64,000 bases of DNA from an uncultured Clostridium sp. (GTDB lineage: Bacteria > Bacillota > Clostridia > TANB77 > CAG-508), in assembly GCA_930982035.1 (NCBI GenBank), contig CAKNJL010000002.1:1416-65415 (forward strand), read 5' to 3'. The notes beneath the pieces are model-generated. The model was not told the DNA's origin. It searched no databases and worked only from the letters and a program-made list of their open reading frames with translations. Made by a program: the position numbers and the translations under genes. Of the stretch, positions 21,310 to 57,633 are shown piece by piece. The stretch's first letter is position 1; every line of letters starts with the position of its first letter.

Positions 21310-21422
21310 TTGTTCCTCCTCTACTAAATAAATTGTAAAAATTTTACAGTTCAAATTATATTATTGTCGATGATAATTTGCAATAAAAACTGGTAATTTT
21401 TTCCATTTATTTTATGAAAGTT

Positions 21423-35425: not shown

Positions 35426-35530
35426 TTTCTTAACATCCTTTCAATTTGATATATCAATGGTTATATTATATCTTTAAACATGTAATTTTGCAATATTTTT
35501 TTATGCTTTTATACTAACTATTCGGAAATT

Positions 35531-35559
35531 GATGATTTTTTCTCCGTCCCAAAATCATC
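35531..35559. repeat. Solo unit GATGATTTTTTCTCCGTCCCAAAATCATC
   Basis: Same unit as the arms at 41552-41657. It contains the TGA stop of 35555..36244. Confidence 0.75.
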
Positions 35560-41530: not shown

Positions 41531-41551
41531 TTTTATTACCAACCCTTTCAG

Positions 41552-41657
41552 AAATGATGATTTGGGGACGGAGAAAAAATCATCGTTTTTTATTACTATT
41601 TATATAAATTTTTTTCTAAAAATGATGATTTTTTCTCCGTCCCCAAATCATCATTTT
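41552..41657. repeat. 33 bp perfect inverted repeats (AAATGATGATTTGGGGACGGAGAAAAAATCATC) flanking a 40 bp spacer
   Basis: Read directly. It sits between the yqfC start and the deacetylase gene, and contains that gene's stop codon. Confidence 0.85.
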
Positions 41658-42469
41658 TCAAATTCATCAAGTGATTTGAATTCATATCCCATATTTTTTG
41701 CTTCTTTTATAACACTATCTAAAATATTGGTATTTGTTTTTGAGTTACCATGTAATAACATTATTTCTCCATTATGTAAGTTTTTTAGTATTTTTTGTTT
41801 TGATTGTTCTTCATCTGGTTGTTTTTCTTCATTCCAGTCTTCATATGCAAATGACCACATGACATTTTGATATCCTAATGAATTTGTAATCTGTAGTGTT
41901 TTTTCACTAAATTCTCCTTTTGGAGGTCTTATATATTTCATTTCATATCCGAATTTTTCATATACTCCTTGGTGTAAATCCATGACTTCTTTTTTTATTT
42001 CTTCTTCTGTTAAACTTGGCATACTTTTATGATTCACTGTATGATTTCCTATTATATGTCCTTCATCTATCATTTGTTTTACTAAATCTTCTTGCGTATT
42101 TACATAGTGTGCTGTTAGAAAAAATGTGGCTTTTACATCATTTTCTTTTAATATTTTTAATATTTCACTTGTATAACCGGCTTCATAACCTTCGTCAAAT
42201 GTTAGATATATTACTTTACTATCCTTGTTTCCTAAACATATTCCATTATTTTCTTCTAATATTTTTCTGTTTTCACTTCCTACATCTGGTTGTTCGTGAT
42301 TGTCATTTCTTTTTATTCCCCATTCTATTTTTTTAGTGCTAACAACTTCTGTATTGGTATTTATAGCCTTTTCCTTCTGGCTTGTTATAACACTTATTGA
42401 TATAACTGCCATAAGCAATACCATTATAGTTATATTTCTAACTAACTGTTTTTTTATATTATTATGCAT
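41651..42469 (-). CDS. Polysaccharide deacetylase (NodB homology), PdaA-like spore-cortex de-N-acetylase; this is the intact copy
   Basis: N-terminal TM helix, then IYLTFDEGYEAGYTSEILKILKENDVKATFFLTAHYV and GHIIGNHTVNHKSM. The TGA stop lies within a repeat. Confidence 0.8.
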   Translation of the reverse strand: MHNNIKKQLVRNITIMVLLMAVISISVITSQKEKAINTNTEVVSTKKIEWGIKRNDNHEQPDVGSENRKILEENNGICLGNKDSKVIYLTFDEGYEAGYTSEILKILKENDVKATFFLTAHYVNTQEDLVKQMIDEGHIIGNHTVNHKSMPSLTEEEIKKEVMDLHQGVYEKFGYEMKYIRPPKGEFSEKTLQITNSLGYQNVMWSFAYEDWNEEKQPDEEQSKQKILKNLHNGEIMLLHGNSKTNTNILDSVIKEAKNMGYEFKSLDEFEK

Positions 42470-42530
42470 GATATTCCTCCTCTTGTTTTCTTTTGTTTAA
42501 TTTTATGATTGATATTTAAAATTATTACTC
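42038..42530. repeat. Left copy of a ~0.5 kb direct repeat (deacetylase 5' coding part plus proximal leader). The right copy is 51448-51940, an offset of 9410 bp.
   Basis: The nucleotide strings are identical wherever compared by eye, and the two ORFs share an identical N-terminal 143 aa. Confidence 0.85.
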
Positions 42531-42624
42531 TCCTATTAAGGTCTGTTACAAAATATCAAAATCGGACAAATTTTGTAAATTTTATTTTAAAATCGCAAAA
42601 AAGAGATATCATTTTGATACCTCT
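42470..42624 (-). repeat. Cassette-junction repeat, copy 1 (terminator hairpin + promoter-like region + 5' leader)
   Basis: On the minus strand it reads AGAGGTATCAAAATGATATCTCTTTTTTG ... TTTACAAAATTTGTCCGATTTTGATATTTTGTAACAGACCTTAATAGGAGAG ... RBS-ATG. Homologous copies are at 46976, 48431 and 51880. Confidence 0.75.
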
Positions 42625-42741
42625 AACACCATGTATTTTATCTAAAATAGTAACTTATAATTCTTCAAATTAATTTTCACAAAAAAGCAGAGCCTAAAGT
42701 AAGAATTCCCTAAACTTCAGACTCTACTATTAAAAATACAA

Positions 42742-43233
42742 TCAATTAAACTTAATTTTTTTTAACCTTTTGTCAAACCACTTTTCTTTTTCTTCATTTT
42801 CTATTTGACTCGCGTCTATCATTATAGCTAAATCATAGCATAACTGAACTTTATCATTATTGATTAAAGTAGACTTTTTTTCTTCCAAAGGGTTACAATA
42901 AGATACAGAATCTAGCGCAAACAATAAAACTGTAAGTTCATAAAAACTCTTCTTATTTTTTTGGTGAGATATAACATTTATTCTCTTTATTAAAACTTTT
43001 TCTATGTCTTTTGCTATTTTGGTAATACTATCAATATTTACAATTTCAAAATTTTTTCCAATAAAATAAGAAAGTGCTTTTTCAAATTCCTTTTTTAATT
43101 GAGTATTTGATAAACTTTCATAAAATTCCCTGTCATCATACAATACACTACTTAAATGATTCAAAAGATTAGATGCTTTGATTGGTTCGTTTAAAATCCG
43201 AGTTATTATTCGTTTCTTAATTGATTTTTTCAT
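42742..43233 (-). CDS. Hypothetical protein (island)
   Basis: ORF of about 163-174 aa. No motif was recognised. Confidence 0.5.
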   Translation of the reverse strand: MKKSIKKRIITRILNEPIKASNLLNHLSSVLYDDREFYESLSNTQLKKEFEKALSYFIGKNFEIVNIDSITKIAKDIEKVLIKRINVISHQKNKKSFYELTVLLFALDSVSYCNPLEEKKSTLINNDKVQLCYDLAIMIDASQIENEEKEKWFDKRLKKIKFN

Positions 43234-43312
43234 TCTATATATCCTCCTTTGAGTTGATACAATCAATTATAACATAAACTATTACTATATTCAATTTTAA
43301 GCGACAAATTAT

Positions 43313-43624
43313 TTATTTGATACTTTCTAAATAAGAAATTCTTTTTCCTTTTTCTTTTGCATACTCTATTTCTAGTTTTGTACTTTCTCCAATGTATCCA
43401 CCAACATTAATTACATAAATCTCATCCGACATATCTATTTTTTGTTTATGCATTTCATCTAACATCTTTTTAGTTTTTTTATCTATATCTTCTTTTTTTA
43501 TCCTATTAAAAAAATTAGGTGTTAAAACTATATTTCCATCTAATGTAAGTTTCTCTTGAATTTTCATAAATTCATCTTCAAATTTAATTGAGCCACATAG
43601 TGTTATTATTTTATATTCATGCAT
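43313..43624 (-). CDS. Small alpha/beta protein of ~104 aa, paralog A of three; tentatively like a nucleoside 2-deoxyribosyltransferase/SLOG fold
   Basis: The pattern is YKIITLCGSIKF ... HKQKIDMSDEIYVINVGGYIGESTKLEIEYAKEKGKRISY. The fold assignment comes from this motif pattern only. Confidence 0.55.
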   Translation of the reverse strand: MHEYKIITLCGSIKFEDEFMKIQEKLTLDGNIVLTPNFFNRIKKEDIDKKTKKMLDEMHKQKIDMSDEIYVINVGGYIGESTKLEIEYAKEKGKRISYLESIK

Positions 43625-43664
43625 CAATTCTAATCACTCGCTTTCTTTTTTATTAGTTCTTTAT

Positions 43665-43782
43665 AAAAGGCAGGAAAGAGATACAGAATGTATCTCTCAA
43701 ACACATATAAAAACAAGTTTTCTAGTTCTCTGCTTTCTGTAAAATAATACAGAGAAAATCCAGAGTTCCCACTTCGGTATAT
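43665..43782 (-). ncRNA. Conserved ~115 nt structured element, copy 1 (candidate cis-regulatory leader, small RNA or miniature insertion)
   Basis: About 90 percent identical to 50484-50601. On the minus strand it ends in the hairpin GAGAGATACA-TTC-TGTATCTCT followed by TTCCTGCCTTTT. It sits 40 nt upstream of small-protein paralog A. Confidence 0.4.
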
Positions 43783-45201
43783 TAGTCATTTTTTAATATT
43801 TTCCAACGTCCTGTCTTTTTTGATCCTTCTCTTTCAATATATCCTTTTTCTTTTAATTCTTTTATATTTCTTTTTATTGTTGGTTCAGAAACTCTTAATT
43901 TTATAGCAATATCTTTTTGTTTCATATTAGGATTTATTTTTAACAAATTTAAAGTATCATTTAAAGTATCATTTAAAGTATCATTTGCTAAATTAATTAA
44001 ATCTTTTTCATCCAATTTTTCATCTCTTAATAGTGGAATTGTTACTCTAAACATCTCTTTATCTTCAAAAATAGGCGGTTTTCCCGAATACAAATATGAA
44101 TTTTTTGTAATTTTTATAAAACCACTACCTAACTCATCTGCATATCCTATTTCTCTAAAAATTTTTGCAATCGTTGGATTTTTTGCAAACGGTGTGTAAT
44201 TTTTTATAGTAAGTAATCCATTTGTTCTAAAAGAATTTGGATTTTCGCATATTAATTTATCTTTATAAATAATCACCCTACTTGTATGACCATCTGTTAT
44301 ATCTCTATGCATAAGAGTATTCAAAACTATTTCACGTGCCATTACATTTCTTGGGCTCACTCTTCTTGCATTTTCATCTAATGCAAACCTGTCCATTGTA
44401 TATTTTGCTATAAAATCAATTAATCTATCATACATATCTATTAAATTGGTTTCTATAAAATCTCTATCATCATATCTGTCTAAATCATCTACTCTATATA
44501 AAGCATCTGTTCTACAATAAGGGTTAATATTTGAAATCACATTATCTTTTCCAAATAGCATAACTCCAGCAAGTGTTACGCCTTGTTTACCAGTTTCCTT
44601 ATCAACTTTATATAATCCCGCACTTTTTAGCAATTCTAAATCTGTCATATCCATCCAAATATGTCTTTTCTTGACATTTGAATTAGCTAACTTTCTTGCT
44701 TTTCCTATTAAATCAAGTCTTAAATCTTCTTCTATTGAAACATATGGATAAATTGTATCTTCATCAAATATTTTTCGTTTTTTATTATGAATACTCGCAA
44801 TTAATGGAATATTATTTGATATATCAAAATCCCCTTCATAATTACGAACAAAAACCTTTCCTTTGCATTTATGAATTTCTGTTGATTCTTCAATATGAGT
44901 ATATAAAAGTATTTTTCCATCTACTTTTATCTCATGCAATTCTGATAAAATAGTTGGATTTATAACTTCTTTATTGTTGCATTGTGTTGTATAATCCTTT
45001 TTTAATTTTCTCTATTAATTCCTCTTTTATTCCAATAATCTCTTTTTTATCATTTGCCCCTAAAATAATATATCCTCCTGTAGTATTTAAAAATGAACAT
45101 ACAGATTCAAACACACTTTTAGGTAATCCATTAGTGGCTTCTTTTAATTCTGTATTAACATTTTCGCCTAATAAAATAATATTTTTAATATTTTCTTCCA
45201 T
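43782..45201 (-). pseudogene. Schlafen/AlbA_2 + HATPase_c_4-like + wHTH regulator (COG2865 type), split by a frameshift near 44955-44975
   Basis: ORF 44971..45201 carries the AlbA_2 pattern (ELKEATNGLPKSVFESVCSFLNTTGGYIILG). ORF 43782..44939 carries the rest, with a C-terminal HTH (IAIKLRVSEPTIKRNIKELKEKGYIER). The second frame is open across the TAA of the first. Confidence 0.6.
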
Positions 45202-45356
45202 AAAGGCTTGTCTCCTTTTTCTCGTTGTTATTTTGAAATTATAATATCACAAATTCCTTTTTTATACAATTAAATTTGAAAAATCAATATTATTTATTCA
45301 TATATCGAAATATTTAAATTTTCATTCATACATTTTTCAAAAACTCTAATTGTTTT

Positions 45357-45432
45357 GATTTGCTCTAAATAGGCTATTACTCTAGCATTTTACCTTTATA
45401 TTATCTCCGGACATTAAGGAAATAGGTGTATG
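45357..45432. repeat. att-like junction repeat, copy a
   Basis: GATTTGCTCTAAATAGGCTATTACTCTAGCATTTTACCTTTATATTATCTCCGGACATTAAGGAAATAGGTGTATGGTTTCCTA is about 90 percent identical to 51379-51452. Confidence 0.7.
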
Positions 45433-45504
45433 GTTTCCTAATTTCTTAATGGCAAAAAATTTTATTAAATAATTTCAAAATAACTTGTCTGCTACATTTT
45501 TAAA

Positions 45505-45531
45505 ATGGCATCTTAAAAATTAAGATGCCAT
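45505..45531 (-). terminator. Intrinsic terminator hairpin downstream of 45548..46324
   Basis: A 12 bp perfect stem (ATGGCATCTTAA / TTAAGATGCCAT) with a 3 nt loop, followed on the minus strand by a T-rich tract. Confidence 0.65.
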
Positions 45532-45547
45532 CTTTTGATTTGATTTA

Positions 45548-46324
45548 TTATTTTATTAAATATTTTTCTGGAACAAAATTTTCAAAAAATTTTGGATTTA
45601 AGTTAATATAGTTTAAATATATTTTTTTTATATTTTGTTCTGAATTTCTTATAACTTTTTCAGCTTGTTTTACTTCTTTTTTATATACCTTCTGTTTTCT
45701 GTAAAAATGTATTTCTCTTGTTTTTAATTTAAAATAAATTATAGTATGTATATATTTTGGAACTTTATATTTTTTACTATACTTATCTATTAGCCAAAGA
45801 GTTAAAAATTGATTCATTCCTTCTTTAAACGCTTCTACAAAAATCCCTTCATTTAATCTTAAATTTTGTGCATGCAATATTTCATGTACTACAATCTCAA
45901 AACATACATCTTTATTTTTATTCAAATATCTATCAAAAGGTATAAAAATGTTCAATTCATGTGTATCTTCATCATAATCAAACCATCCGTCTTTTATATG
46001 TTTTACTTTATATACATTAAATTTTGCAAGTTCTATATTTTCATCTACACTTTTAATTAACTTTATTGCATCTTTAACAATTTCTATCTCTTCTGCATTA
46101 AACTCTTTATTTCTCTTGCATTTTTTTCTCGTTAATGTTAGGTATTGTTTATATGCCTCTTTTAAATAATAAAAACATATCTCTACTAATATTAATATTG
46201 ACAAGAGTTTTATCAATGGATTATAATTTTCTTCTTTTAACGATAAAATTATAATTATAGTTGCTATGCTTACTACTACTAATCCAACGATTAATTTGAT
46301 TTTTATTATTGTCCGATGTTTCAT
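45548..46324 (-). CDS. Membrane-anchored protein with an HExxH motif (putative metalloprotease)
   Basis: Two N-terminal TM helices and the motif VVHEILHAQN. Confidence 0.5.
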   Translation of the reverse strand: MKHRTIIKIKLIVGLVVVSIATIIIILSLKEENYNPLIKLLSILILVEICFYYLKEAYKQYLTLTRKKCKRNKEFNAEEIEIVKDAIKLIKSVDENIELAKFNVYKVKHIKDGWFDYDEDTHELNIFIPFDRYLNKNKDVCFEIVVHEILHAQNLRLNEGIFVEAFKEGMNQFLTLWLIDKYSKKYKVPKYIHTIIYFKLKTREIHFYRKQKVYKKEVKQAEKVIRNSEQNIKKIYLNYINLNPKFFENFVPEKYLIK

Positions 46325-46580
46325 TTTCTTATTCTCCTTTTCTTTTTAATATAATAAAATAATAATATCAAACCTTTTTAGTATTGTGCTATTCACACAA
46401 TTAAATACCAATATACATTTCTCGTATATATAATATTATATATCATTTTACATAATTTTTCAACTTTAGATTCTAATTGAGATTAGTCCACAAGTACTAA
46501 AATATGTATTTAGAAAATTTCATTAATTAGTATTATTTTTGAATGTTAATTTTATTTTTATATTTTTTTCTTTATCAAAT

Positions 46581-46724
46581 TCAATTCTTTCGATTAACTT
46601 TTCTAATATCATTAATGTCTCTTTTATTTTCAACACTTTCGCTTTCTCGGTCATCTCCATCTCCTCTTGAAAGTCTTATATATTTTGCAACTCTTATGTT
46701 TCTATAACTATTTACCCTATTCAA
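46581..46724 (-). pseudogene. Remnant of the N-terminus of a large serine recombinase (47 codons)
   Basis: A TTG start after GAGAGGTGAG. IRVAKYIRLSRGDGDDRESESVENKR matches the YxRLSxxDg...ES.S..NQ catalytic-serine region. The ORF then stops and no further recombinase sequence follows. Confidence 0.45.
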
Positions 46725-46855
46725 TTTTACTCACCTCTCTTTTTAAGTTCAAATAAGAATTGCTATTTCTATTTGAACTTTTCGAGAGTAAATAGCCTAT
46801 CTAAAGCATCTTGATTATAACATGCTCTTTTATAATTATCAGCCTTAAATAAGCG

Positions 46856-46975
46856 TTATTTTTCATTCATAGTTATATAATTTATGTATTGTTCTTTTAG
46901 TAATTTTGTAATTATCTCTTTTAACCTTTCTTTTCCATATTCAATTTGTATATTTACATTTTGTCCGTTTTCCAT
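46856..46975 (-). CDS. Untracked 39 aa ORF (MENGQNVNIQIEYGKERLKEIITKLLKEQYINYITMNEK)
   Basis: AAAAGGAG RBS. It occupies the same position after the cassette-junction repeat as the deacetylase gene does in other copies. Confidence 0.3.
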   Translation of the reverse strand: MENGQNVNIQIEYGKERLKEIITKLLKEQYINYITMNEK

Positions 46976-47133
46976 TTTCTCTTTGCTCCTTTTTAGTTTT
47001 GTTTAATCTTATGAGAAATCTTTAAATTTATTCCTCTACTATTAAGGTCTCTTATAAAATATAAAAATCGGACAAATTTTAAAAATTTATTTTTAAAATC
47101 ACAAAAAAGAGATACTAATTTCTTAATATCTCC
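46976..47133 (-). repeat. Cassette-junction repeat, copy 2
   Basis: Aligns with copy 1 across the AATCGGACAAATTTT and TTAAGGTCTCTTATAAAATAT region, and includes its own hairpin plus T-run. Confidence 0.7.
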
Positions 47134-47186
47134 AATTTTATATTCATTTTTGTTTTCATTTACAATAACAATTATAAGTTGTAACT

Positions 47187-47663
47187 CTAGTTATTTAAAA
47201 TATATTTTTCATCATCTTTTTTAAAACCAAATTTTTCATATAATTTTATTGCATGAGGATTAACTGCATCAAGTTCAATTTTTTTACATTCAATTTCTTT
47301 AAGAAAATCTAAAATCTTTTTCATTAATACATTTTGTATTCCTTTACATCTATAATCTTCATCCGTATATACACTTGTTATATATGCTTTTTTGCCATTA
47401 AGAAAAAAAGCAGAAGGGACCATCTGCTGAATAACTACTCCATTACTGGCAACTGTTCTATTATTACTTTTATCTACTGCTATAAAAAAATATATTGTTT
47501 TATTTAGTTCCTGTAATAATACCCTTTTTATATTTTCTCTTGCTATCTTTTCATTTTGTAATATTATTCCATCTCTATTGCAAGTATATATATTTTGTTT
47601 TATTTTTAATTCTACTAAATCCTCTATATCGTTTACATCTGCTTTTTTATATATTAATTCCAT
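47187..47663 (-). CDS. GNAT family N-acetyltransferase
   Basis: 158 aa. RCKGIQNVLMKKILDFLKE (acetyl-CoA binding Q/RxxGxG/A-like) followed by YEKFGFK. Confidence 0.75.
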   Translation of the reverse strand: MELIYKKADVNDIEDLVELKIKQNIYTCNRDGIILQNEKIARENIKRVLLQELNKTIYFFIAVDKSNNRTVASNGVVIQQMVPSAFFLNGKKAYITSVYTDEDYRCKGIQNVLMKKILDFLKEIECKKIELDAVNPHAIKLYEKFGFKKDDEKYILNN

Positions 47664-48270
47664 TTTTGTATATTCTCCTTTTCAAGTAAGTATTTTTAAA
47701 TAAATCATTTAAGTATTCACTTTTTTCTTCTGTTGTTTTTAAATATAATATATATGGCATTCCACCGTAAGTCATATAATCCTTTAATGCCCTCTTTTTG
47801 TCTTCATATGCATTATAAAATTCAGAAAATGATAGAGGATAAATTCTAATTTCATCTCCTCTGCCTCTAAATTCTGTAATAATACCTGTAGAAAAAAATT
47901 TTGAATTGCTTCCTGTTACATAAACATCTAAATTATTTTTTCTTAAAAAACTATTTAAAACGCTTTCAAAATCTTTTACCCTTTGAATTTTATCAAGAAG
48001 AATATAATACATATAATCATCTTTAATTTTATTCATAATATATTTATATAAATTTAATCCATCTGTTGTTAATTCTCTATTTTCAATAGAATCTAAGTCA
48101 ACTTTTATAATATGATCTTCTTTTACTCCATCTGCTAATAATGAATTTTTAAACATAGGATCAAGTAAATATGATTTTCCACTTTTTTCTAAGTCCTGTA
48201 ATAATTTTTATTAATTTATTATTTTTTTATTTTTTAACTTTGTTAAATACAAATCTCTAGCTATTTCCAT
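47647..48270 (-). pseudogene. AAA ATPase of the COG1373 type (AAA_14/DUF4143 family), frameshifted in poly-A tracts at the 5' end and truncated at the 3' end
   Basis: The upstream frames read MEIARDLYLTKLKNKK / IKIITGLRK / SGKSYLLDPMF, which is a P-loop split over three frames. The DUF4143 part is missing and the GNAT gene overlaps the end. Confidence 0.55.
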
Positions 48271-48430
48271 TTTATACTCTCCATTTATTTTTTTTGTGTA
48301 TATACACATTTTATGATAATATAATAATTTAAAAAGATAGATTAGTCAATTATATTTTTTACTTTTTTGTGTTGAAACACGTTTTTTGTTAATAGTATAT
48401 TTCATATCAAACAAAATATTCACATTTTGT

Positions 48431-48587
48431 TTTTTTATTTTCGCTTTGTTCTTTTAGTTTTATTTAATATTATAAGTGATATTTTAAATTATTCTTCTAT
48501 AATTAAGGTCTGTTACAAAATATGAAAATAGGACAAAATTTAAAATGATTGTTTAAACCACAAAAAGAGATATCTCTTTGATACCTC
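48431..48587 (-). repeat. Cassette-junction repeat, copy 3
   Basis: TAATTAAGGTCTGTTACAAAATATGAAAATAGGACAAAATTT ... AAAAAGAGATATCTCTTTGATACCTCT. Confidence 0.7.
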
Positions 48588-48599
48588 TATCACATTTAT

Positions 48600-49286
48600 T
48601 TATACATCTATTTTTTTAATATATCTTTTCCCTTCTTCATCTTTTTCTACTTTTAGAATAAAATCAAATTTATTTATTTCTGTGCATAAATAAAAATCTC
48701 TTTCAGGAAAATCCTTTTGTTTTGATTTATCAAAGAATTTAGAGCCAGTTGTATTTTTTAATTGATTAATTTGTTCTCCTAACTTATTCAATGGATTATT
48801 TTCTAACAAACTTTTTATATAGTTTGCACATAATATATCTTCATCAAATGGATTTTCTCCTGTTTTGCATAAAGTCAATAGTGAAATTTCCTCTATTTCA
48901 TTTTTAATAATATATCTGACAATAGCTTTTGCATTTACCAAACTACCTGTTATAATTTGTTTCGCATTTATAGATTTTACAATTCCTTGCGTCCCACAAC
49001 TCGTTGTATGTATAGCGGTTTTTTCAGAAAAATCAACATTTTCAATTTGAGATGGAGAGTTACCATAGTCAAATCCTGGCAATATTATTCCATTTCTTTC
49101 TCCAATTAAAATTATATTATTATCTTTATTTTTATAATCGTATGCTACTTGCATATCACCAACTGGAATTATTTTTTTTACACCATTGTTAATCAAATAT
49201 GGTTCAACTGTAAATGCCCTAAAGACATCTATTACTACAGTTAGTCCAGTTGCTTTGTTTGCATCACTAACTATTTTTATATTCAA
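48600..49286 (-). CDS. 2-phosphosulfolactate phosphatase (ComB) family protein
   Basis: Motifs VVIDVFRAFTV and GERNGIILPGFDYGNSPSQI. TTG start after GGAGGAG. Confidence 0.8.
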   Translation of the reverse strand: MNIKIVSDANKATGLTVVIDVFRAFTVEPYLINNGVKKIIPVGDMQVAYDYKNKDNNIILIGERNGIILPGFDYGNSPSQIENVDFSEKTAIHTTSCGTQGIVKSINAKQIITGSLVNAKAIVRYIIKNEIEEISLLTLCKTGENPFDEDILCANYIKSLLENNPLNKLGEQINQLKNTTGSKFFDKSKQKDFPERDFYLCTEINKFDFILKVEKDEEGKRYIKKIDV

Positions 49287-49298
49287 ATTATTCTCCTC

Positions 49299-49815
49299 CT
49301 ACAATTTCTCTATATCATTATTATAAAAAATTGTTTCTTCAAATTCTTCAAATGTACATTCTTTGTTTTCAATCATTGATTTAATTTCATTCAAACTTAC
49401 ATATTTACACTTCATAACTTCACCATCATTGTATTTTAATGAATATAAAGATATATCTTTTCTTAGTATATAAATATATCTAAATTTATTTTTTCTTTTT
49501 AGAATCTTTATTAATTTTAATTCATTAGTTTTAACATTTATTCAAATTTCTTCTTGTAATTCTCGTATAATGCCATCAACACTCTTTTCTCCAGTTCTTA
49601 GTCCTCCATGTGTTTATTCCCATTTACCTCCACGATTTTTGTTAAGACTTCTTTGAGTTAATAATATTTGATTAGATGAATTAATAATAAAGCAATGCTC
49701 TGTTATTATATATTCATTATTTATTCAACTACCTATATCTTTTCTATTTATTATTTTACCAGTTGTGTTTCTATTTTGATTATACACATCGATTAATTCT
49801 TCTTTCTCATTCTCT
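49299..49815 (-). pseudogene. NUDIX hydrolase pseudogene with multiple stops and frameshifts
   Basis: The fragments read ELIDVYNQNRNTTGKIINRKDI, EHCFIINSSNQILLTQRSLNKNRGGKWE(stop)THGGLRTGEKSVDGIIRELQEEI(stop). This is a broken Nudix box. Confidence 0.6.
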
Positions 49816-49828
49816 ACCCACTACTATT

Positions 49829-50434
49829 TTATTTAACACTTTCCAAATAAGAAATTCTTTTTCCTTTTTCTTTTGCATATTCTATTTCTGATTTTGTACT
49901 TTCTCCAATATATCCGCCAACATTAATCACATAAATCTCATCAGACATATCTATTTTTTGTTTGTGCATTTCATCTAGCATTTTCTTAGTTTTTTCATCT
50001 ATTTCTTCTTTTTTTATACTATTAAAAAAATTAGGTGTTAAAACTATATTTCCATCTAATGTAAGTTTCTCTTGAATTTTTATAAATTCATCTTTAAATT
50101 TGATTGAACCACATAAGGTTATTATTTTATATTTATTTTTATTAAGAGATTCTGAACTTTGTATTCTTCCTTCTCTTGCATATTTAAAGAATAAATGAGC
50201 ACCCTTTTCTACTATCTCTCTAAATTCTTTTATCTCTTCTTAGCTGTAATTTCCATCTTGTTCTACTATCTCATAACTTGGTAGTTCAAAAACTACATTA
50301 TCAAACCCATTTTCTGTTGGTCTTTCAAAAGAAATTTTTATATATTCTTCACCATTATCTTTTTTTCTAATATCTGAAAAAACAACTAATGTTTCATCAG
50401 GATATTTAGCAAATTCATATACCATTACTATCAC
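49829..50434 (-). pseudogene. In-frame fusion of a ~94 aa family protein with small-protein paralog C, interrupted by one in-frame TAA (50240-50242)
   Basis: A single 606 nt frame reads ...EQDGNYS(TAA)EEIKEFREIVEKGAHLFFKYAREGRIQSSESLNKNKYKIITLCGSIKF...ISYLESVK. The homolog at 50884..51156 has D where the TAA sits. Confidence 0.6.
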
Positions 50435-50483
50435 ATTCCTTACAATTTTTTAGCATTGATGCATAGACTTTATTTAAAATCCT

Positions 50484-50601
50484 AAAAGGCAGGAAAGAGA
50501 TACAGAATGTATCTCCTAAACACATAGAAAAACAAGTTTTCTAGACCTCTGTTTTCTTTAAAATAATACAGAACAAATACAGAGTTACCACTTCGGTATA
50601 T
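50484..50601 (-). ncRNA. Conserved ~115 nt structured element, copy 2
   Basis: Same sequence family and the same terminal hairpin. It sits 50 nt upstream of 49829..50434. Confidence 0.4.
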
Positions 50602-50611
50602 TTTATAGGTA

Positions 50612-50875
50612 TTAACAATAAAATCTGACTTCTTGATCTGGGAAGTGTTTTTTCCACTCTGATATTATATAAAAATAGTTATTATCTACTGATTCCAACA
50701 ATTCTGTTAATTCTTTACTTGGAATTTTACTTTTATTATTTGCTAAAATACAACCACCACTTTTGGTTAGCCATACTTTTGTAGAATTAGGTGTTGGCTT
50801 TCCTTTTGAAATATGTATATGTATTGGTTCATTATTTTCATTTGACCAAAAATAAATTTTATATCCGTAAAATTT
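50612..50875 (-). pseudogene. DUF4160-like ORF lacking a canonical start codon
   Basis: The stop-to-stop frame reads KFYGYKIYFWSNENNEPIHIHISKGKPTPNSTKVWLTKSGGCIL...ISEWKKHF, matching the YG.kI.f.snE...P.H.H pattern. There is no ATG, GTG or TTG near its 5' end. Confidence 0.45.
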
Positions 50876-50883
50876 CTAGTATA

Positions 50884-51156
50884 TTAGGCACTAAGAATCC
50901 CTCCTTGTCTTGCCCATCTATAAAAAGATGGCAAACCTCTTTCCACTACAGTTCTAAACATTTCTATTTCTTCGTCTGTATAGTTTCCATCTTTGTATAA
51001 TATTTTACAACTTGGAAGTTCAAACCTAACACTATCAAAACCTTTTTCAGTAGGTCTTTCAAAATGCACATGTAAAATTTCTTCTCCATTTTCATTTTTC
51101 ATAATATGTGAAAAAACAACTTCTGTTTCATCAGCATATTTACAATAAGGATACAT
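50884..51156 (-). CDS. Hypothetical ~90 aa protein, paralog of the N-terminal part of 49829..50434
   Basis: MYPYCKYADETEVVFSHI...FERPTEKGFDSVRFELPS aligns with MVYEFAKYPDETLVVFSDI...FERPTENGFDNVVFELPS. Confidence 0.6.
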   Translation of the reverse strand: MYPYCKYADETEVVFSHIMKNENGEEILHVHFERPTEKGFDSVRFELPSCKILYKDGNYTDEEIEMFRTVVERGLPSFYRWARQGGILSA

Positions 51157-51378
51157 CACTTTCATCACTCTCTTTCTTTTCTATTTTTATTATTAATCAA
51201 ATTTATTTAAAATGCTTGTCTACTATTTCATTAAAGCTAATCCTTTTATATACTATCATTAGTATATCATAATTTGTTTAAATTTACTATATTTTTGGAT
51301 AACTTTAGAAATTTTTATTGAAATTTTAAAGTATCATTTAATGTATCATTTATAGTATCTTAAAGTATCATTGTATAT

Positions 51379-51452
51379 GATTGCTCTAAATAGGCTATTA
51401 CTCTACCATTTTACCTCTATACCATTTCCGGACATTAAGGAAATAGGTGTAT
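51379..51452. repeat. att-like junction repeat, copy b, abutting the truncation point of the deacetylase duplicate
   Basis: The same ~75 bp sequence. Identity with the intact deacetylase gene begins right after it, at GTATGATTTCCTAT. Confidence 0.75.
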
Positions 51453-51879
51453 GATTTCCTATTATATGTCCTTCATCTATCATTTGTTTTACTAAATCTT
51501 CTTGCGTATTTACATAGTGTGCTGTTAGAAAAAATGTGGCTTTTACATCATTTTCTTTTAATATTTTTAATATTTCACTTGTATAACCGGCTTCATAACC
51601 TTCGTCAAATGTTAGATATATTACTTTACTATCCTTGTTTCCTAAACATATTCCATTATTTTCTTCTAATATTTTTCTGTTTTCACTTCCTACATCTGGT
51701 TGTTCGTGATTGTCATTTCTTTTTATTCCCCATTCTATTTTTTTAGTGCTAACAACTTCTGTATTGGTATTTATAGCCTTTTCCTTCTGGCTTGTTATAA
51801 CACTTATTGATATAACTGCCATAAGCAATACCATTATAGTTATATTTCTAACTAACTGTTTTTTTATATTATTATGCAT
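51403..51879 (-). pseudogene. Truncated duplicate of the polysaccharide deacetylase gene (first ~143 codons identical to 41651..42469)
   Basis: Identical protein sequence up to ...MIDEGHIIGNHT, after which it diverges into the junction repeat (PISLMSGNGIEVKW, stop). Confidence 0.85.
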
Positions 51880-52029
51880 GATATTCCTCCTCTTGTTTTC
51901 TTTTGTTTAATTTTATGATTGATATTTAAAATTATTACTCTACTATTATGTCTTTTAAAAAATATATAAAATGAACAAATTTTTAAAAATTTTTTTATCA
52001 TAAAAAAGAGATATCTTTTTGATACCTCT
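51880..52029 (-). repeat. Cassette-junction repeat, copy 4 (upstream of the truncated deacetylase copy)
   Basis: The first ~60 nt are identical to copy 1, and the distal part has diverged. Confidence 0.75.
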
Positions 52030-52077
52030 TTTTATTTCCATTCCCTATGACCTTTGTAGGTTTTTAGCTATATTAAA

Positions 52078-52431
52078 TTATCTTCCATCATCAATAAGCC
52101 AGTTTCCTTTATTTACAATATTTCTACCTTTAGATATCTTTTGTTCATTTTTAGCAATGTTTTCTCCTATTCGCCCATTCATTTTTCTTATATTTTCTTC
52201 ATCAGTCAAGCTACTCGTATCAAAAGCACCTTCAGTTCTTATTGATGTTATTATTTGTTTAGTTGGTGATACTTCAACTTTAGCACCTTTAGTCCAAGTT
52301 ATCTTCTTCCCAGTTTTTTGTTCTATGTATCCCTCTATTTCTTCATCTTTCATTTCTTTCAATTTTTCATATGGTATTCCTATTCTTTTCGAAAGTAATT
52401 CTTTAGTTTTATTTGATAACTGAAAACTCAT
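52078..52431 (-). CDS. Hypothetical protein
   Basis: 117 aa ORF directly downstream of paralog B. No motif was recognised. Confidence 0.5.
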   Translation of the reverse strand: MSFQLSNKTKELLSKRIGIPYEKLKEMKDEEIEGYIEQKTGKKITWTKGAKVEVSPTKQIITSIRTEGAFDTSSLTDEENIRKMNGRIGENIAKNEQKISKGRNIVNKGNWLIDDGR

Positions 52432-52455
52432 TTTTCTTTCCTCCTAAATAAATTC

Positions 52456-52773
52456 CTATTCTGATTTCTTATTTTCCAAATAAGAAATCTTTTTTCCTCT
52501 TGCTTCGGCATATTCGATTTCATTTTTTGTACTTTCTCCAATATATCCTCCAACATTAATTACATAAATCTCATCAGACATATCTATTTTTTGTTTATGC
52601 ATTTCATCTAGCATTTTCTTAGTTTTTTCATCTATATCTTCTTTTTTTATATTCCTAAAAAAATTAGGTGTTAAGACAATATTTCCATCTAATATAAGTT
52701 TTTCCTGAACCTTCATAAATTCATCTTTAAATTTAATTGATCCACATAGAGTTATTATTTTGTATTCATGCAT
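52456..52773 (-). CDS. Small alpha/beta protein, paralog B of three
   Basis: About 85 percent identical by eye to 43313..43624 (YKIITLCGSIKFKDEF...YVINVGGYIGESTKNEIEYAEARGKKISYLE). Confidence 0.6.
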   Translation of the reverse strand: MHEYKIITLCGSIKFKDEFMKVQEKLILDGNIVLTPNFFRNIKKEDIDEKTKKMLDEMHKQKIDMSDEIYVINVGGYIGESTKNEIEYAEARGKKISYLENKKSE

Positions 52774-52849
52774 CAATTTTAGTCACTCGCTTTCTTTTTT
52801 AATATTTTCCAATATCCAGTCTTTTTTGAATCTTTTCTTTCAATGTACT

Positions 52850-54214
52850 CTATCGTGTTTTCTTATTTTGAGCTTCATCTAGCCATATATCAGCTAAAGT
52901 TATATTCCTTAATCCATCTTGACTTTTTCCTAAAGATACTGCACTTAAATTAACATTTCCCATTTTTAGTCCATTCTCTATTAACTCAAAATATGCCATT
53001 TCTTCTTTTTCAGTTGTATTCATATTTATTGCCTTTAATACAAAATCACTAATCTCATCATTTCTTATTTGTTTTCTTAATTTCCTTATATACATCAAGA
53101 ATGATTTTTCTTTATCCTTACTAGAAAATTTATCGCAAACTTCTTTTGCTCTTTCAAAGTCTTTTGTATTAGTCAAATTTTTTATTACTGTTCTTATTGC
53201 TTGCTCTAATTCTCCATCACATAACTTTTGTATTTGCATAATAGTTTTTTCTGGATTCTCTATATGATATTGCTCTGCCTTTTCCATTAACACAGTCTTT
53301 ATTTGTATTAAAATTTGTCTTTTTTCTTGTTCTTCTGTTATACTAAATCTGTTTTTGGGCTTGTTTACAATTCTTCTTTTTGCTTCTTTATCAATAATTT
53401 CATTTGCTATTTGAATATCTAAGGTTCCATTTGCTAAATCTCTTACAAGAGCTCCTATATCTTCAGAAATGTCATTTCTAACTCTATCTATAGCTTTCTG
53501 TTGAGTTATTTTTGATATTTTATTTTCTATTCTGCTTTTTACTGCTCCTACAACTATTGGATTATTTTTTTGCATTTCCATTGTTATTTTTTTCTTTAAC
53601 ATCTTTAATTCTTCTAATTTATCGCTTTGAGATTGTGCAACGTCAATAGCTTCCACTAATTTTTTAACTATTATTTTTCTACTTTTATTCATGTAAAAAT
53701 CATTTTTTTCTGTTTTATTTGAATTTAATTTTTTTAATTCTTCTGCGTGTGTTATAAAATATAACTTCTCTGCTTGTTCAACAGTTAATTGTTCATCTTC
53801 TATTTGCTTTACTTTAGTTAATATTGCCTTAACTTCTTTTCTTATTTCACTTTTAGGTGATTGTTTTATATATCTAGCCATTTCTTCGATTTCTGCTACA
53901 ATTAAATTTATTTGTTCAACTTTTTCTCTTGGTAATTCTTTTGGTTGCTTAACTTCAATTTCATTGCTTGTAAAATACAATTTTTTATATCTTTCTCTCA
54001 TTTGTTGCATTTTTGAGCCTGTCTGTTTATTTTTATCACTAGTTGATTTTTGAGTACTATAAGTTTTAGCTAAATTAGATTTTTCTAACATTTTTAATTC
54101 TAATTCACATTGTTTAATTTCTTCTATTGGTATATCTAATTCAAAAGATATCAATTCTAAATCAAATCCATGTTTTATTAATTTTTTTATTTCTTCTTTT
54201 TCAATATGTTTCAT
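52850..54214 (-). CDS. Hypothetical helical K/E-rich protein
   Basis: 454 aa ORF. A consensus promoter (TTGAAA, 17 nt spacer, TATAAT) lies on the minus strand at about 54300-54335. Confidence 0.55.
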   Translation of the reverse strand: MKHIEKEEIKKLIKHGFDLELISFELDIPIEEIKQCELELKMLEKSNLAKTYSTQKSTSDKNKQTGSKMQQMRERYKKLYFTSNEIEVKQPKELPREKVEQINLIVAEIEEMARYIKQSPKSEIRKEVKAILTKVKQIEDEQLTVEQAEKLYFITHAEELKKLNSNKTEKNDFYMNKSRKIIVKKLVEAIDVAQSQSDKLEELKMLKKKITMEMQKNNPIVVGAVKSRIENKISKITQQKAIDRVRNDISEDIGALVRDLANGTLDIQIANEIIDKEAKRRIVNKPKNRFSITEEQEKRQILIQIKTVLMEKAEQYHIENPEKTIMQIQKLCDGELEQAIRTVIKNLTNTKDFERAKEVCDKFSSKDKEKSFLMYIRKLRKQIRNDEISDFVLKAINMNTTEKEEMAYFELIENGLKMGNVNLSAVSLGKSQDGLRNITLADIWLDEAQNKKTR

Positions 54215-54510
54215 CTTATTCCCACTTTTCCTTATTTTTTTGTCCTCTTATAAAATTTTATCTATGTAACTTTAGAATCTATCTTTTGTTAATCTCATAA
54301 ATTTATTGAAATTATAACATAAGCTTATTGACTTTTCAATATTTATTGAACAAATCGGAAAGCCTTAAAATTTATATTAACTGTATCTTTCCTCGTTGGC
54401 TTTCCGTAAATTTGTTCTGTGCCAATTTTACGCTAGTAAAATTGTGTGCAACCATTGGAGCGTAGCGACTTTTATACAATAGGAAAGTATCACTTTCCTA
54501 TTGTAGTATA

Positions 54511-54547
54511 CAAAACACCACCAGATACATCTAGTGGTGTTTTGTTT
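54511..54547. terminator. Bidirectional intrinsic terminator hairpin after 54588..55784
   Basis: The stem AACACCAC / GTGGTGTT has a 12 nt loop and is flanked by an A-run and a T-run. Confidence 0.6.
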
Positions 54548-54587
54548 TAATACCAAGATTATTAAAAGTTTTAGTAAAGCTTGAAAA

Positions 54588-55784
54588 CTATTTCAATTCA
54601 TTCTCAAGCATTATAATTTTCTGCAATTCTGAAAGGAAAGTCAAAAGTTTTACTTTTCTTTCACTTTCATATTTCTGCACAAAATCATTGAGAAACTTTG
54701 AGAATGCCATATGAGCTATCTCTTTCTGTTCAACAGGAATCTTCGTTTCTCCCAGAATGATATCCCAATCCATTCTTTTCTTTCTAATCGCTATACTTGC
54801 GATTTCAATAATCTGTTTTTGTTCTTCATCAGACAATTGATTTAATTCCATAGCTTCCAGAACATAGCGAACTTTTTCCTCAACCGCCTGTGTCTTATCG
54901 ACACTCGCCAAAGTTTCCTCAAAATTTTTAATCTCAGGCATACATTCCATTTTTACTCTTGGTTTTGAAAAAACATTTTCTTTAGCCTCTTCTGAAATTT
55001 CTTCAATATTTCCTGTTGCTTCTTCTGCCAATTGTTCAGTAGATTCATCATATTCTTCAGTTTGTTTAAAAGAATAATCTTTATACTCTACAACTGCTTT
55101 TAAAAATGGTATCATTGTTATATTAAACTTTAATGAAACCTGCTTACGAGCCCAAATTTTATCCCATTCTGCACAAAGAATTTTCTTCTTTTCCAAGCCT
55201 TCTTCTAATTTTTTCCATGTGATAGTATCAACATCAGCTGATACTATTATTAAATTTTTAAAAAAGCTCTGCCTCTTTTCGTCTATTTCCATCCATTTTA
55301 CTATCAAGTCTGCAAAATTATCAAACGAAGTTGCTTTTTTTGCAATTTCTTTTAATTCTGGAATATTAACAGGTTTAGTCGCAGACTTTGTAACTTGTTT
55401 CTTTTTAGTAGTTGGTCCGTCTTTTTTCTTTTTAGCTTGTCCAGTCCGTTCAGAACCTTCAATTTCTTCAAACGTCCGTCCAACCTGCTCAGAATTTTCA
55501 TTCTCCTTGCTTTCCTGTTCAGGGTTCAGTTTGCTTTCAATCTGTACATGCTCATCTTCTCCGCTTTCTTTGAACTTCTTTCCACTGTGGAATTCAATCA
55601 CTTTGCAATTGTTTATTGCCTCCACAATTTCCATAGGAGGTTTCTGGAAAACAATTTTCATTTTTACCTCATTGCCTTCTATTGCAATGCTATTTTCATT
55701 ATCAAAGTTCTGAAAATATGCCCTAATCAAACGTCCAGCACTTCCCTCCTGTTTAATTTTTACCTTTGCATAAAACTCACTCAT
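54588..55784 (-). CDS. Hypothetical protein, visibly G+C-richer than its surroundings (probably foreign)
   Basis: 398 aa ORF. Stretches such as CCAGTCCGTTCAGAACC and CGTCCGTCCAACCTGCTC are atypical for this genome. No motif was recognised. Confidence 0.6.
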   Translation of the reverse strand: MSEFYAKVKIKQEGSAGRLIRAYFQNFDNENSIAIEGNEVKMKIVFQKPPMEIVEAINNCKVIEFHSGKKFKESGEDEHVQIESKLNPEQESKENENSEQVGRTFEEIEGSERTGQAKKKKDGPTTKKKQVTKSATKPVNIPELKEIAKKATSFDNFADLIVKWMEIDEKRQSFFKNLIIVSADVDTITWKKLEEGLEKKKILCAEWDKIWARKQVSLKFNITMIPFLKAVVEYKDYSFKQTEEYDESTEQLAEEATGNIEEISEEAKENVFSKPRVKMECMPEIKNFEETLASVDKTQAVEEKVRYVLEAMELNQLSDEEQKQIIEIASIAIRKKRMDWDIILGETKIPVEQKEIAHMAFSKFLNDFVQKYESERKVKLLTFLSELQKIIMLENELK

Positions 55785-56025
55785 CTTGTTTCTCCTTTCA
55801 TTGTTAAAAAGTTAATTGATGCAAATGTATCTTGGTATTTCTTCACTTTTTTGATGTTTAGTAAATAACTTACTAAAATACAATAAATATTTGAAAATAT
55901 TCCAATATATATCATATTATACTATGGTTCTACATAATTTTCAATGTATGATAAAAAATAGTGGATATAAAAAACTAGATAGTTCTTTTGTATTTATGAT
56001 TTTTATAAATTTCATATATTTTTAG

Positions 56026-57144
56026 TCATATTAAATTTTCTGGATTTAATCCTTCTAATTCTTTTAATACAAACCTTCCATCTTTTCTTACCAAAACATC
56101 ATCAAAATATATTTCTCCACCACCATATTCTGGAGTTTGAATATTTACTATATCCCAATGAATACTTGAACGGTTACCATTATCGCTCTCTTCCAAGCTA
56201 TCACCTGGTGTAAAGTGAAAACTTCCCTTTATTTTTTCATCAAATAAGGTATCTCCTATTGGCTTTTCTATATATGGATTTAATCCAAAGGCAAACTCTC
56301 CTATATATCTTGCTCCTTCGTCTGTATCTAATATCTCATTTAGTTCTTTTGTTTTGTTGGCTGTTGCTTTTATTATTTTACCATCTTTAAATTCAAATCT
56401 TATATTATTGAATAAAACTCCATTATAGCTTGTTTCTGTGTTATATGTTATATATCCATTCACACTTGTTTTTACTGGTGCTGATGCTACTTCCCCATCT
56501 GGTATATTAAATGTGCCTGTATATTTTTCTGCTGGTATTCCTTTTACGCTAAATGTTAAATCTGTTCCTTCACCTATAATATGAACTTTATCTGTCTTAT
56601 TCAACAAATCTTTTAGTGAATCCATTGCTTTTGACATTTTTGAATAATCTAAATTGCATACATTAAAGAAAAAGTCTTCAAAATCATCTTTATTCATTTT
56701 GCTCATTTGCGCCATTGAATTGTTTGGATATCTTAGAATACACCATTTTGTATTTTTTACTCTCTCTTCAAAATGGACTGGAACAGTATAGTATTTGTTA
56801 TATAATTCCATTATTTCTTTTGGTATTCCACTAAGCTCACTAGTATTAGGCGTTGCTCTTATTCCAATATATGCTTGCATATCTCTCATTCTTGCCTCAT
56901 CATGTTTTCCATACATTTTTATTTGCTCTTCTGTTGCATTTTTCAACATTACTCTTAACATTTCATAGTTTACTATATTAAAATATGGTTTTGCTTCTAA
57001 TTCTTCTGCTCTTTTTATTAATTCTTTTGCAAGTGGTATTCCATCTTCTCCTAATACTTCTATTAAAATATTATCTCCTTTTTGAATATTTACAGAGTAT
57101 GTTAATAAGTTATTTGCTAGTTTTTCAATCCTTAAATCTTTCAT
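56026..57144 (-). CDS. Aminopeptidase of the M29 family (AmpS/PepS type)
   Basis: 372 aa. The N-terminus is MKDLRIEKLANNLLTYSVNIQKGDNILIEV, with IPDGEVASAP and GSFHFTPG / HWDIV near the C-terminus. Confidence 0.85.
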   Translation of the reverse strand: MKDLRIEKLANNLLTYSVNIQKGDNILIEVLGEDGIPLAKELIKRAEELEAKPYFNIVNYEMLRVMLKNATEEQIKMYGKHDEARMRDMQAYIGIRATPNTSELSGIPKEIMELYNKYYTVPVHFEERVKNTKWCILRYPNNSMAQMSKMNKDDFEDFFFNVCNLDYSKMSKAMDSLKDLLNKTDKVHIIGEGTDLTFSVKGIPAEKYTGTFNIPDGEVASAPVKTSVNGYITYNTETSYNGVLFNNIRFEFKDGKIIKATANKTKELNEILDTDEGARYIGEFAFGLNPYIEKPIGDTLFDEKIKGSFHFTPGDSLEESDNGNRSSIHWDIVNIQTPEYGGGEIYFDDVLVRKDGRFVLKELEGLNPENLI

Positions 57145-57521
57145 AATTTTATTCTCCTTTATTCCATAGTTTTATATGCATTTTGTAAAATATCATATCT
57201 ATATTTTATTACTCTTTTATAAAATTCTTTTCTTTCATTTATAATTATTAAATTCTTCTACTGCATTTGTAAAATCTATCATTTCTTTCATCCTTTCTAG
57301 AAACTTTATATGCCTTAGTATATCATATTTAATAAAAATTTACTATACTATTTATTTAAAAAATTCAAGTGTAAATTATGATAATTTCTTTTATTTTTTT
57401 AGTTTTTTATATCTAACTATTTAACCCCCTTCTTGTAACTCTATCTCTTTGACTCTTTATTTACACTACTATTATCTCTTTTACTATTCAAATAAATTTG
57501 TCGATATGGTATTGACAATAT

Positions 57522-57550
57522 GAATTTTTTAGAATATATTGTTGTTGCAA
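57522..57550 (+). promoter_or_regulatory. Sigma-A type promoter for the LytTR regulator and kinase operon
   Basis: TTGACA (57522-57527), an exact 17 nt spacer, and TATATT (57545-57550). It lies about 85 nt upstream of the ATG at 57634. Confidence 0.6.
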
Positions 57551-57633
57551 CTGGAAAAATAAGGTAATTATTTTTTTATTGTCAAATTTTATGTTTTTTT
57601 AAAACGTATATTTTTTAGGAGGGGATTTTATAT

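Follow-up and report, generated by a model that had tools for sequence, protein, structure and literature searches.

A duplicated front half of a pdaA-type deacetylase gene and a probable stack of decayed recombinase elements in an uncultured Clostridium

Several sporulation genes are known to be split by intervening elements: sigK by skin, spsM by SPbeta, spoVFB by vfbin, spoVR by vrin and gerE by gin (PMC4191935, PMC5595907). These elements use large serine recombinases (LSRs), lie inside the coding sequence and often consist of decayed prophage-like DNA; all described cases concern genes expressed in the mother cell, and excision takes place in this terminal cell (PMC4191935, PMC5595907). 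Here we describe a locus in a 64,000-nucleotide stretch of DNA from an uncultured Clostridium sp. (contig CAKNJL010000002.1; the whole stretch is referred to as the window), in which the front half of a pdaA-type deacetylase gene occurs twice, enclosing about 9.4 kb of accessory DNA, termed the island. In B. subtilis, pdaA is controlled by sigmaG in the forespore. Since sigmaG/forespore control also applies to C. difficile pdaA (PMC3789822), the mother-cell rule may not apply to this target.

Further points of comparison are arrays of the ICESt1-ICESt3 type and cis-mobilizable elements (CIMEs), in which the integrase is lost and the attachment (att) sites are kept, elements are stacked in tandem at one target and hybrid att sites lie between them (PMC5704250). 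As a rule, insertion of an element with a serine recombinase interrupts the target gene, and elements of the tyrosine type give rise to a second copy of a gene end (PMC5704250); at the present locus, a family of the serine type is combined with a gene-end duplication of great length. Our favoured reading, to which we assign a probability of about 0.6, is that the interval between the copies represents a stack of decayed, immobile members of an LSR element family integrating into pdaA at the sequence that encodes IGNHT, with repair based on a repeated promoter module designated D2.

The duplicated front half and its core sequence

Pairwise alignment and repeat search gave 100% identity across 495 bp between 42038-42532 and 51448-51942, in direct orientation and at an offset of 9410 bp, in agreement with the initial annotation of the window. 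On the minus strand, which carries all genes in the island part of the window, the repeat comprises a 63-nt leader and 432 nt of coding sequence, i.e. codons 1-144 of the deacetylase; beyond it, the similarity drops to ~60-70% for ~90 nt of a terminator/promoter module, reaching to ~42625 and 52029. In gene orientation the upstream copy is truncated at the att-like repeat and the downstream copy intact, as had been claimed (open reading frames (ORFs) 51403-51879 and 41651-42469), and the gene has indeed stayed whole, with an ORF of 272 aa. The gene is of the pdaA type and not of the pdaB type: the intact protein passes, barely, the NCBIfam model TIGR02884 for delta-lactam-biosynthetic de-N-acetylases (298.3 bits, cutoff 298) and fails the PdaB model (169 vs a cutoff of 237). 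By this equivalog cutoff and its NodB-fold deacetylase domain it is a predicted PdaA. The gene is followed by yqfC and yqfD, a synteny kept in 80 related loci, and the exact 158-aa protein encoded across the junction of the truncated copy is present in three other metagenome assemblies. The features on which the argument relies are as follows.

41651-42469, minus strand: intact pdaA-type deacetylase gene, 272 aa (ORF list; Pfam Polysacc_deac_1, PF01522, E=2.4e-39)
42038-42532, minus strand: repeat copy A, leader plus codons 1-144 of the intact gene, 100% identical to 51448-51942
51448-51942, minus strand: repeat copy B, leader plus codons 1-144, ending at the core; dead 5' half with attL-type junction
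51403-51879, minus strand: truncated ORF of 158 aa, residues 1-144 as in the intact protein, then 14 unrelated residues from element DNA
42038-42051, no strand: unoccupied core (attB) in the intact gene, encoding IGNHT
42041-42049: 9-bp sub-core ATGATTTCC, direct repeat used by the large recombinase-bearing element of sister strains (contig L116 stops at 42041, contig L126 begins at 42049)
51362-51461, no strand: core plus arm p, left end of module EA, 86% identical to 45341-45440
45412-45451 (40 bp), no strand: internal attP-like site CATTAAGAAATTAGG-AAACCATACA-CCTATTTCCTTAATG, recognised by sequence, which divides module EA from module EB

The identity of the two copies stops at the core TGTATGATTTCCTA (plus strand), which reads TAGGAAATCATACA on the gene strand and codes for IGNHT of the NodB metal-binding motif. 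Besides 42038-42051 and 51448-51461, a third copy with one mismatch (TGTATGGTTTCCTA) was found at 45427-45440. Downstream of the core the intact gene continues with pdaA sequence, and the element arm p follows at 51448-51461; the third core is bordered by a second copy of arm p on one side and by a different arm, p'', on the other. About 85 bp of arm p adjoin the cores at 45427-45440 and 51448-51461, the 100-nt segments 45341-45440 and 51362-51461 being 86% identical. Within 45412-45451, the ends of p'' and p are imperfect inverted repeats of 15 bp (13/15 matching) that enclose 10 bp, with a fold z-score of -2.5, and this palindrome is an intact attP-like joint between two modules. The truncated 5' half together with the core and arm p (51448-51461 + 51362-51447) constitutes an attL-type scar. 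The junction thus lies inside a sporulation gene, at codon 144/145, and is bounded by core repeats, with an intact copy of the gene present as well; the downstream pdaA is uninterrupted and its target site is still empty. Read in the direction of the gene, the order is 5' half - core - p (EA, 6.0 kb) p'' - core - p (EB, 3.4 kb) D2 - leader - 5' half - core - 3' half. A CIME is devoid of integrase and transfer genes and keeps both att sites. In agreement with this, EA has an att site at either end, core and p at 51362-51461, p'' and core at 45427-45451, and Pfam detected no recombinase in the annotated ORFs and the gap regions scanned.

Two further observations concern the surroundings of the gene. 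The gap between pdaA and yqfC contains a 45-nt inverted repeat (41546-41662; 93% complementary, 27-nt loop) with partial copies at ~35526-35559 and ~11975-12021, which could act as a strong terminator or represent a palindrome of the REP type. At 20488-21354 the window carries a Spo0A gene (receiver domain plus Spo0A_C), which is consistent with a spore-forming host.

Related loci, modules and the recombinase remnant

For comparison, 80 related species of uncultured gut Clostridia were considered (best pdaA identity 86%); the material compared consists mostly of short-read metagenome assemblies, and loci and contigs are cited by L numbers. The order in most of these species is AgrB - histidine kinase - LytTR - ~360 bp - pdaA - yqfC - yqfD, and in the window ~15 kb lie between LytTR (57634) and the intact pdaA. 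The empty site to be looked for in related genomes was therefore found in most of the 80 species, for example in L005, whose LytTR-pdaA gap is ~360 bp long and whose spacer halves match window 57460-57597 and 51880-52002. It was also found in the same species (L128), with a single intact pdaA, neither EA nor EB, and only an AlbA_2 remnant and a DUF4406 gene upstream. In three loci, L092 among them, element-left-end genes stand directly 5' of the intact pdaA without the old 5' half.

A scan of metagenomes for the arm-plus-core pattern returned two contigs with a junction at the same base of pdaA. Their arm is 98.8% identical to 45360-45440, and their 5' halves, which are not alike, share ~76% identity with those of the window. 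In another species (L109) this junction occurs with an arm that has diverged, and the junction of front half, core and arm was found in at least three other species. Furthermore, window 57508-42078, both copies included, has a colinear match of 99.47% identity in a 57.7-kb contig assembled from a different sample (L100/L127).

An element with intact recombinases was found in the same species. Contig L126, 99.7% identical to window 42049-31336, shows the order PemK toxin - small ORF - 541-aa LSR - second recombinase in two pieces - GGAAATCAT - pdaA 3' half - yqfC, the 541-aa recombinase comprising the domains Resolvase, Recombinase and, weakly, Zn_ribbon_recom. Correspondingly, L116 and two other contigs contain the window-like array with the pdaA 5' half (144 aa) followed by GGAAATCAT, DUF4406, ParA, ParB and SpaA-type surface proteins (adhesin). 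In same-species strains a large element with intact recombinases thus evidently splits pdaA at the 9-bp sub-core (42041-42049). Its arms are unlike p and p'', yet they are likewise inverted repeats. A search with the junction-tail protein gave only three fragments, one of which is the left junction (attL) of this second family in another species; judging from these junctions, two related recombinase families use overlapping cores in the same conserved pdaA codons. Positions 1-736 of L126 contain an IS91-family (Y2 transposase) gene and the PemK toxin inside the pdaA-splitting element.

Because the same junction occurs in other species and a same-species element sits at the core, the island is best understood as a scar of site-specific integration. 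Of the initial annotation's proposal that one element had integrated at the core, the site-specific part is upheld by the junctions in other species' pdaA with their 98.8% identical arm, and the single 9.4-kb element has to be given up in favour of two modules and an older layer. The kinship to intervening elements of sporulation genes, proposed at the same time, gained support from the LSR element that splits pdaA at the same core in same-species strains, and the L126 element supplies the recombinase-bearing relatives that were to be sought, as a sister family with different arms. From its sequence, the 9.4-kb interval is a composite of two modules separated by the internal attP-like site, with the third, older layer lying upstream. 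Pfam and tblastn searches confirmed that only accessory genes, pseudogenes and a recombinase remnant lie between the copies and that the content is decayed. The constituents are listed below; p followed by a number denotes individual proteins.

45441-51447, minus strand: module EA, 6.0 kb (Pfam searches; tblastn against the window)
50884-51168: EA, p94
50615-50875: EA, DUF4160
50153-50434: EA, p94 pseudogene
49832-50137: EA, DUF4406 pseudogene
~49300-49800: EA, NUDIX pseudogene
48600-49286: EA, ComB-like phosphatase
47647-48156: EA, truncated AAA_14
47187-47663: EA, GNAT
46856-46975, minus strand: EA, conserved 39-aa ORF between promoter module and recombinase start
46614-46694, minus strand: EA, large-serine-recombinase remnant, catalytic-serine region RVAKYIRLSRGDGDDRESESVENKRDI, ~27-31 N-terminal codons, ~95% of the gene deleted
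45548-46324: EA, p258
42052-45426, minus strand: module EB, 3.4 kb, with arm p, cargo, D2, leader and pdaA 5' half
44971-45201 + 43782-44939: EB, frameshifted AlbA_2/HATPase_c_4/HTH gene
43313-43627: EB, DUF4406
42742-43266: EB, p174
42480-42625, minus strand: D2 upstream of intact pdaA
46986-47121: D2 before the small ORF and the recombinase
48447-48601: D2 before the AAA_14 pseudogene
51890-52029: D2 before the truncated pdaA copy
52003-57460, minus strand: older layer 5' of the truncated copy, missing in empty-site relatives
Within 52003-57460: older layer, M29 peptidase, p398 and p454
52794-52847: older layer, AlbA_2-type gene, last 18 codons only
52456-52776: older layer, DUF4406
52078-52431: older layer, p117

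The recombinase remnant, likewise reported by the initial annotation, is genuine: window 46613-46916 is 92% identical at the DNA level to contig L110, which runs on into an ORF with Resolvase and Recombinase domains, and the remnant is 79% identical to the intact 541-aa recombinase of L126, which itself is 80% identical to that of L110. These two matches establish its homology to large serine recombinases. In a tblastn search of the window with TndX, the remnant was the sole match (56% identity over 27 aa, TndX residues 11-37, E=1e-3). In a search of plasmids every match bearing an annotated feature was a serine recombinase, with TndX as the best annotated one, and the L110 recombinase shares 38% identity with TndX over 263 aa. 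The remnant covers the catalytic-serine motif only, without the recombinase and zinc-ribbon parts, and was not recognised in Pfam, NCBIfam and PDB sequence searches, being too short. No recombinase was detected by Pfam in the annotated island ORFs, in three minus-strand gap regions or in 10 other window ORFs, so that in the window the remnant, and no functional LSR, accompanies the att sites; none turned up in the 80 related species at distances of up to 10 kb from pdaA either. Scans of viral contigs gave no match to arm p, arm p'', p385 or p94, and with the L110 recombinase they gave only phage integrases of 41-42% identity.

Homologues of the 39-aa ORF stand directly 5' of the recombinase in L109 and L126; its product may be a directionality factor or some other regulator. 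The 5' region of the recombinase gene is duplicated in tandem in L110 (4-513) and in inverted orientation in L111 (558-1012), and a piece encoding DNYKITKRTIHKLYNYE lies inside the small ORF of the window just 5' of the remnant; the start of the recombinase gene seems prone to rearrangement.

D2, a module of ~130 nt, was found by repeat search in 4 copies in the window and comprises a terminator hairpin, a conserved promoter-like stretch, a leader and a ribosome-binding site. According to alignments it corresponds to the conserved region upstream of pdaA in relatives, and D2-like sequence also occurs 5' of the recombinase operon in L111 and L109. The sequence of the D2 promoter gave no assignment to a type of sigma factor. 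The same-species contig L130 corresponds to the window without exactly the 4.5 kb that separate two copies of D2 (~46997 to ~42614). The missing unit consists of small ORF, recombinase remnant, p258, attP-like joint, AlbA_2 gene, DUF4406 and p174, and resembles a circularly permuted element that was gained or lost through recombination between D2 copies. An integron-like cassette array was considered for the D2 repeats, since one follows each cargo gene, and was rejected, as the ORFs scanned contain no tyrosine recombinase and D2 is homologous to the pdaA leader of all relatives.

Regarding the cargo, p258 was tried as a marker of intact elements and discarded: it is shuffled cargo, chromosomal in one related locus (L091) and located directly 5' of pdaA in L092. 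The 12-nt tandem repeat AAAGTATCATTT, present at 43939-43998 and 51304-51363, codes for NDTL repeats close to the C-terminal end of the AlbA_2/HTH protein and is the sole trace of that gene left in module EA. Five contigs, among them L098 (10597-12351) and L099, carry as cargo a gene for a protein of 584 aa, which has two HEPN-like motifs (RNxxAH), is without a recorded Pfam match and could be a defence-type RNase; in sister strains the gene stands between p117 and the truncated pdaA, and the window is without it. Upstream, the hotspot is flanked by an agr-type quorum-sensing locus (LytTR regulator, GHKL kinase, AgrB; 57634-60659). Across 62496-57279, which spans this locus, L099 and one other contig are just 91.7% identical to the window, compared with 98.5-99.8% for the adjoining island. 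The intergenic stretch 57204-57347, 5' of the M29 peptidase gene, is 77-90% conserved ~1 kb upstream of pdaA in seven other species; Rfam matched no family in the island region, this stretch included.

Origin of the second front half

According to the favoured reading of a stack of decayed LSR elements, a canonical member would consist of arm p, cargo, the D2 promoter module, the small ORF, the LSR gene and arm p''. It would integrate by attP x attB, splitting pdaA, and would bear a copy of the pdaA promoter and leader (D2) ahead of its recombinase operon. Homologous recombination between this D2 and that of an intact pdaA allele, provided by the sister chromosome after excision or by incoming DNA, could then restore a complete gene; the same exchange would double the 5' half and remove the side with the recombinase, so that what is left could no longer move. 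The segment 42614-46997 (4.5 kb) would be a circularly permuted element that was inserted via D2 x D2 or can be deleted in this way, and gene conversion would afterwards hold both 5' halves identical. With a spare 5' half present, excision would be unnecessary in the window.

The last of these steps can be compared with the copies themselves. In all three genomes with both copies on one contig (window, L100/L127 and L116) the copies are identical within the genome, and 8 sites differ between genomes. Furthermore, the truncated copy of L099 differs from that of the window at 14/494 positions (2.8%), while the adjoining EA is 99.83% identical. Since copies are identical within and different between genomes, and since the divergence in L099 stands beside near-identical EA, the data indicate that gene conversion, and not a recent duplication or import, keeps the two 5' halves identical.

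Several observations weigh against the course of events outlined above. No intact member of canonical form, bearing both arm p and arm p'', came to light, and the intact recombinases of L126 belong to the sister family, with different arms and without D2 homology. The D2 copies share only 67-83% identity, which makes them a poor RecA substrate. Short-read assembly (bubble popping) could inflate the identity of repeat copies, although one sample appears to give two different haplotypes, L099 and L118 (if they stem from one genome). A 4.6-kb block common to L098 and L099 (98.9%) spans the second junction of the L098 array, so that 5' halves cross species together with island DNA, with which an import is compatible as well. 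Finally, a comparison of the two pdaA halves across species gave only a weak signal of mosaicism: 5' and 3' half have different nearest neighbours, by a margin of no more than ~2 percentage points.

The import of front halves, the model of the initial annotation, is the alternative that survives best. It states that the right end of each element brings along a promoter, a leader and the 5' half of pdaA, with 5' half - core - arm p as the attachment site, so that the resident 5' half is displaced upstream and the gene stays whole, much as with those elements of the tyrosine-integrase type that substitute one end of a gene. EB of the window, the element E1 of L098 and L099 and the short form of EA in L130 all have D2, leader and 5' half at their end, immediately before the core, as would be expected from such an import, and two species share an identical linkage of p117 via D2 and leader to a 5' half (haplotype H2). 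In L099 and L118, which come from the same sample, the truncated and the intact copy are ~2.6% apart. The array of L098, a distant species (yqfD ~67% nucleotide identity to the window), consists of a 5' half 97% identical to that of the L092 species, core, p, cargo and p117, continued by the HEPN-like 584-aa gene, D2, a 5' half 97% identical to that of the window, core, p and p94; with a third one, ~75% identical to any locus compared, three different 5' halves are stacked there. The pdaA of L098 itself, however, is intact with a variant core, and both its halves are equally distant from all other loci, so that the array may merely lie upstream. The shared block of L098 and L099 crosses a junction, which suggests exchange by homologous recombination rather than core-based transfer, and the single intact joint of the window (45412-45451) bears arm p'' and no pdaA 5' half. 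The sole recombinase tied to the family is an LSR, and canonical LSRs recombine attP x attB or attL x attR and are not known to integrate an attL-like joint into attB. Because of this restriction, and because the locus does recombine at D2, we tentatively prefer, at no better than even odds, that the spare 5' half was made by repair in place; its import by the elements appears possible and the less likely of the two.

Mis-joined strain variants as the source of the 495-bp duplication or of the module order are very improbable. Two contigs do break exactly at the repeat boundary, a third links the p174 context to the EA junction, perhaps by a mis-path through the repeat, and the short-read origin of most comparison data has to be borne in mind. 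Against this, the junction sequence was found in many samples and sits at a conserved core common to other species, and the whole 15-kb arrangement is repeated at 99.5-99.6% identity in long contigs of other samples (L100/L127, L116, L117/L129, L122); since the junction protein and this arrangement recur in independent assemblies, a one-off artefact is excluded. Plain segmental duplication or cassette shuffling by homologous recombination, with an incidental likeness of the cores, is just as hard to credit: internal repeats are abundant (DUF4406 x3, p94 x2, D2 x4) and recombination between them yields strain variants, but this reading is already contradicted by the cross-species junctions, with their breakpoint the same to the base in several species and their near-identical arm. 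The palindromic attP-like joint and the intact recombinases of L126, which adjoin the same core with its 9-bp direct repeat, speak against it as well.

Comparison with known systems

The stack of decayed elements favoured here can be set against several known types of integration. SXT/R391 elements in the 5' end of prfC provide a new promoter and 5' coding end, so that the target gene stays functional; they use a tyrosine integrase and replace only a few codons. At the present locus, in contrast, 144 of 272 codons are duplicated, and the element is only a putative source of them. Tn4451 and Tn5397, with TnpX and TndX as sole recombinases, are small non-conjugative elements that recombine at a GA dinucleotide and have several targets. 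They resemble the family described here in that they are clostridial and that TndX is the best annotated match to the remnant, and they differ in that the pdaA family is specific for one conserved pdaA sequence. The pdaA locus offers natural material for work on serine integrases: a 40-bp attP-like site, a conserved attB within a conserved motif, two related recombinase families with overlapping cores and a candidate small directionality factor.

For the Dehalococcoides ssrA islands, repeated site-specific insertion at one conserved gene is reported to lead to tandem islands with remnant direct repeats (PMC3146451); as described there, the target is the tmRNA gene and not pdaA (PMC3146451). 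The accretion of CIMEs has its likeness in the succession of EA, attP-like joint and EB and in the older layer upstream. Unlike the classical cases, which involve tyrosine integrases, gene ends and short duplicated ends, the pdaA locus involves the serine type, an integration in mid-gene and a duplication of 495 bp that includes the promoter. With respect to the host gene, the locus also shows that pdaA 5' halves move between species of gut Clostridia.

The intact-recombinase element of the sister strains, which splits pdaA, is of the skin type in this respect. The window differs from skin-type loci in that its pdaA is uninterrupted and the recombinase is gone, and pdaA is a forespore gene in C. 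difficile. An excision confined to the mother cell is of no cost to the germline. Germination depends on the muramic delta-lactam that pdaA provides, and elements specialised in such a forespore gene would face a conflict different from that of the mother-cell cases. The locus appears to record one outcome, in which the gene was restored by a duplicated 5' half and the element was stranded. We further consider it conceivable, as a rather unlikely extension, that LSR elements target this forespore cortex gene, have their recombinase operon under a copy of its promoter and leader, excise in the forespore at the very time when pdaA is needed, ride in the spore as a circle and reintegrate at germination, the duplication of the 5' half then being a host escape that heals the gene and kills the element. 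If this were true, the forespore-excising element would be the germline-compartment counterpart of skin.

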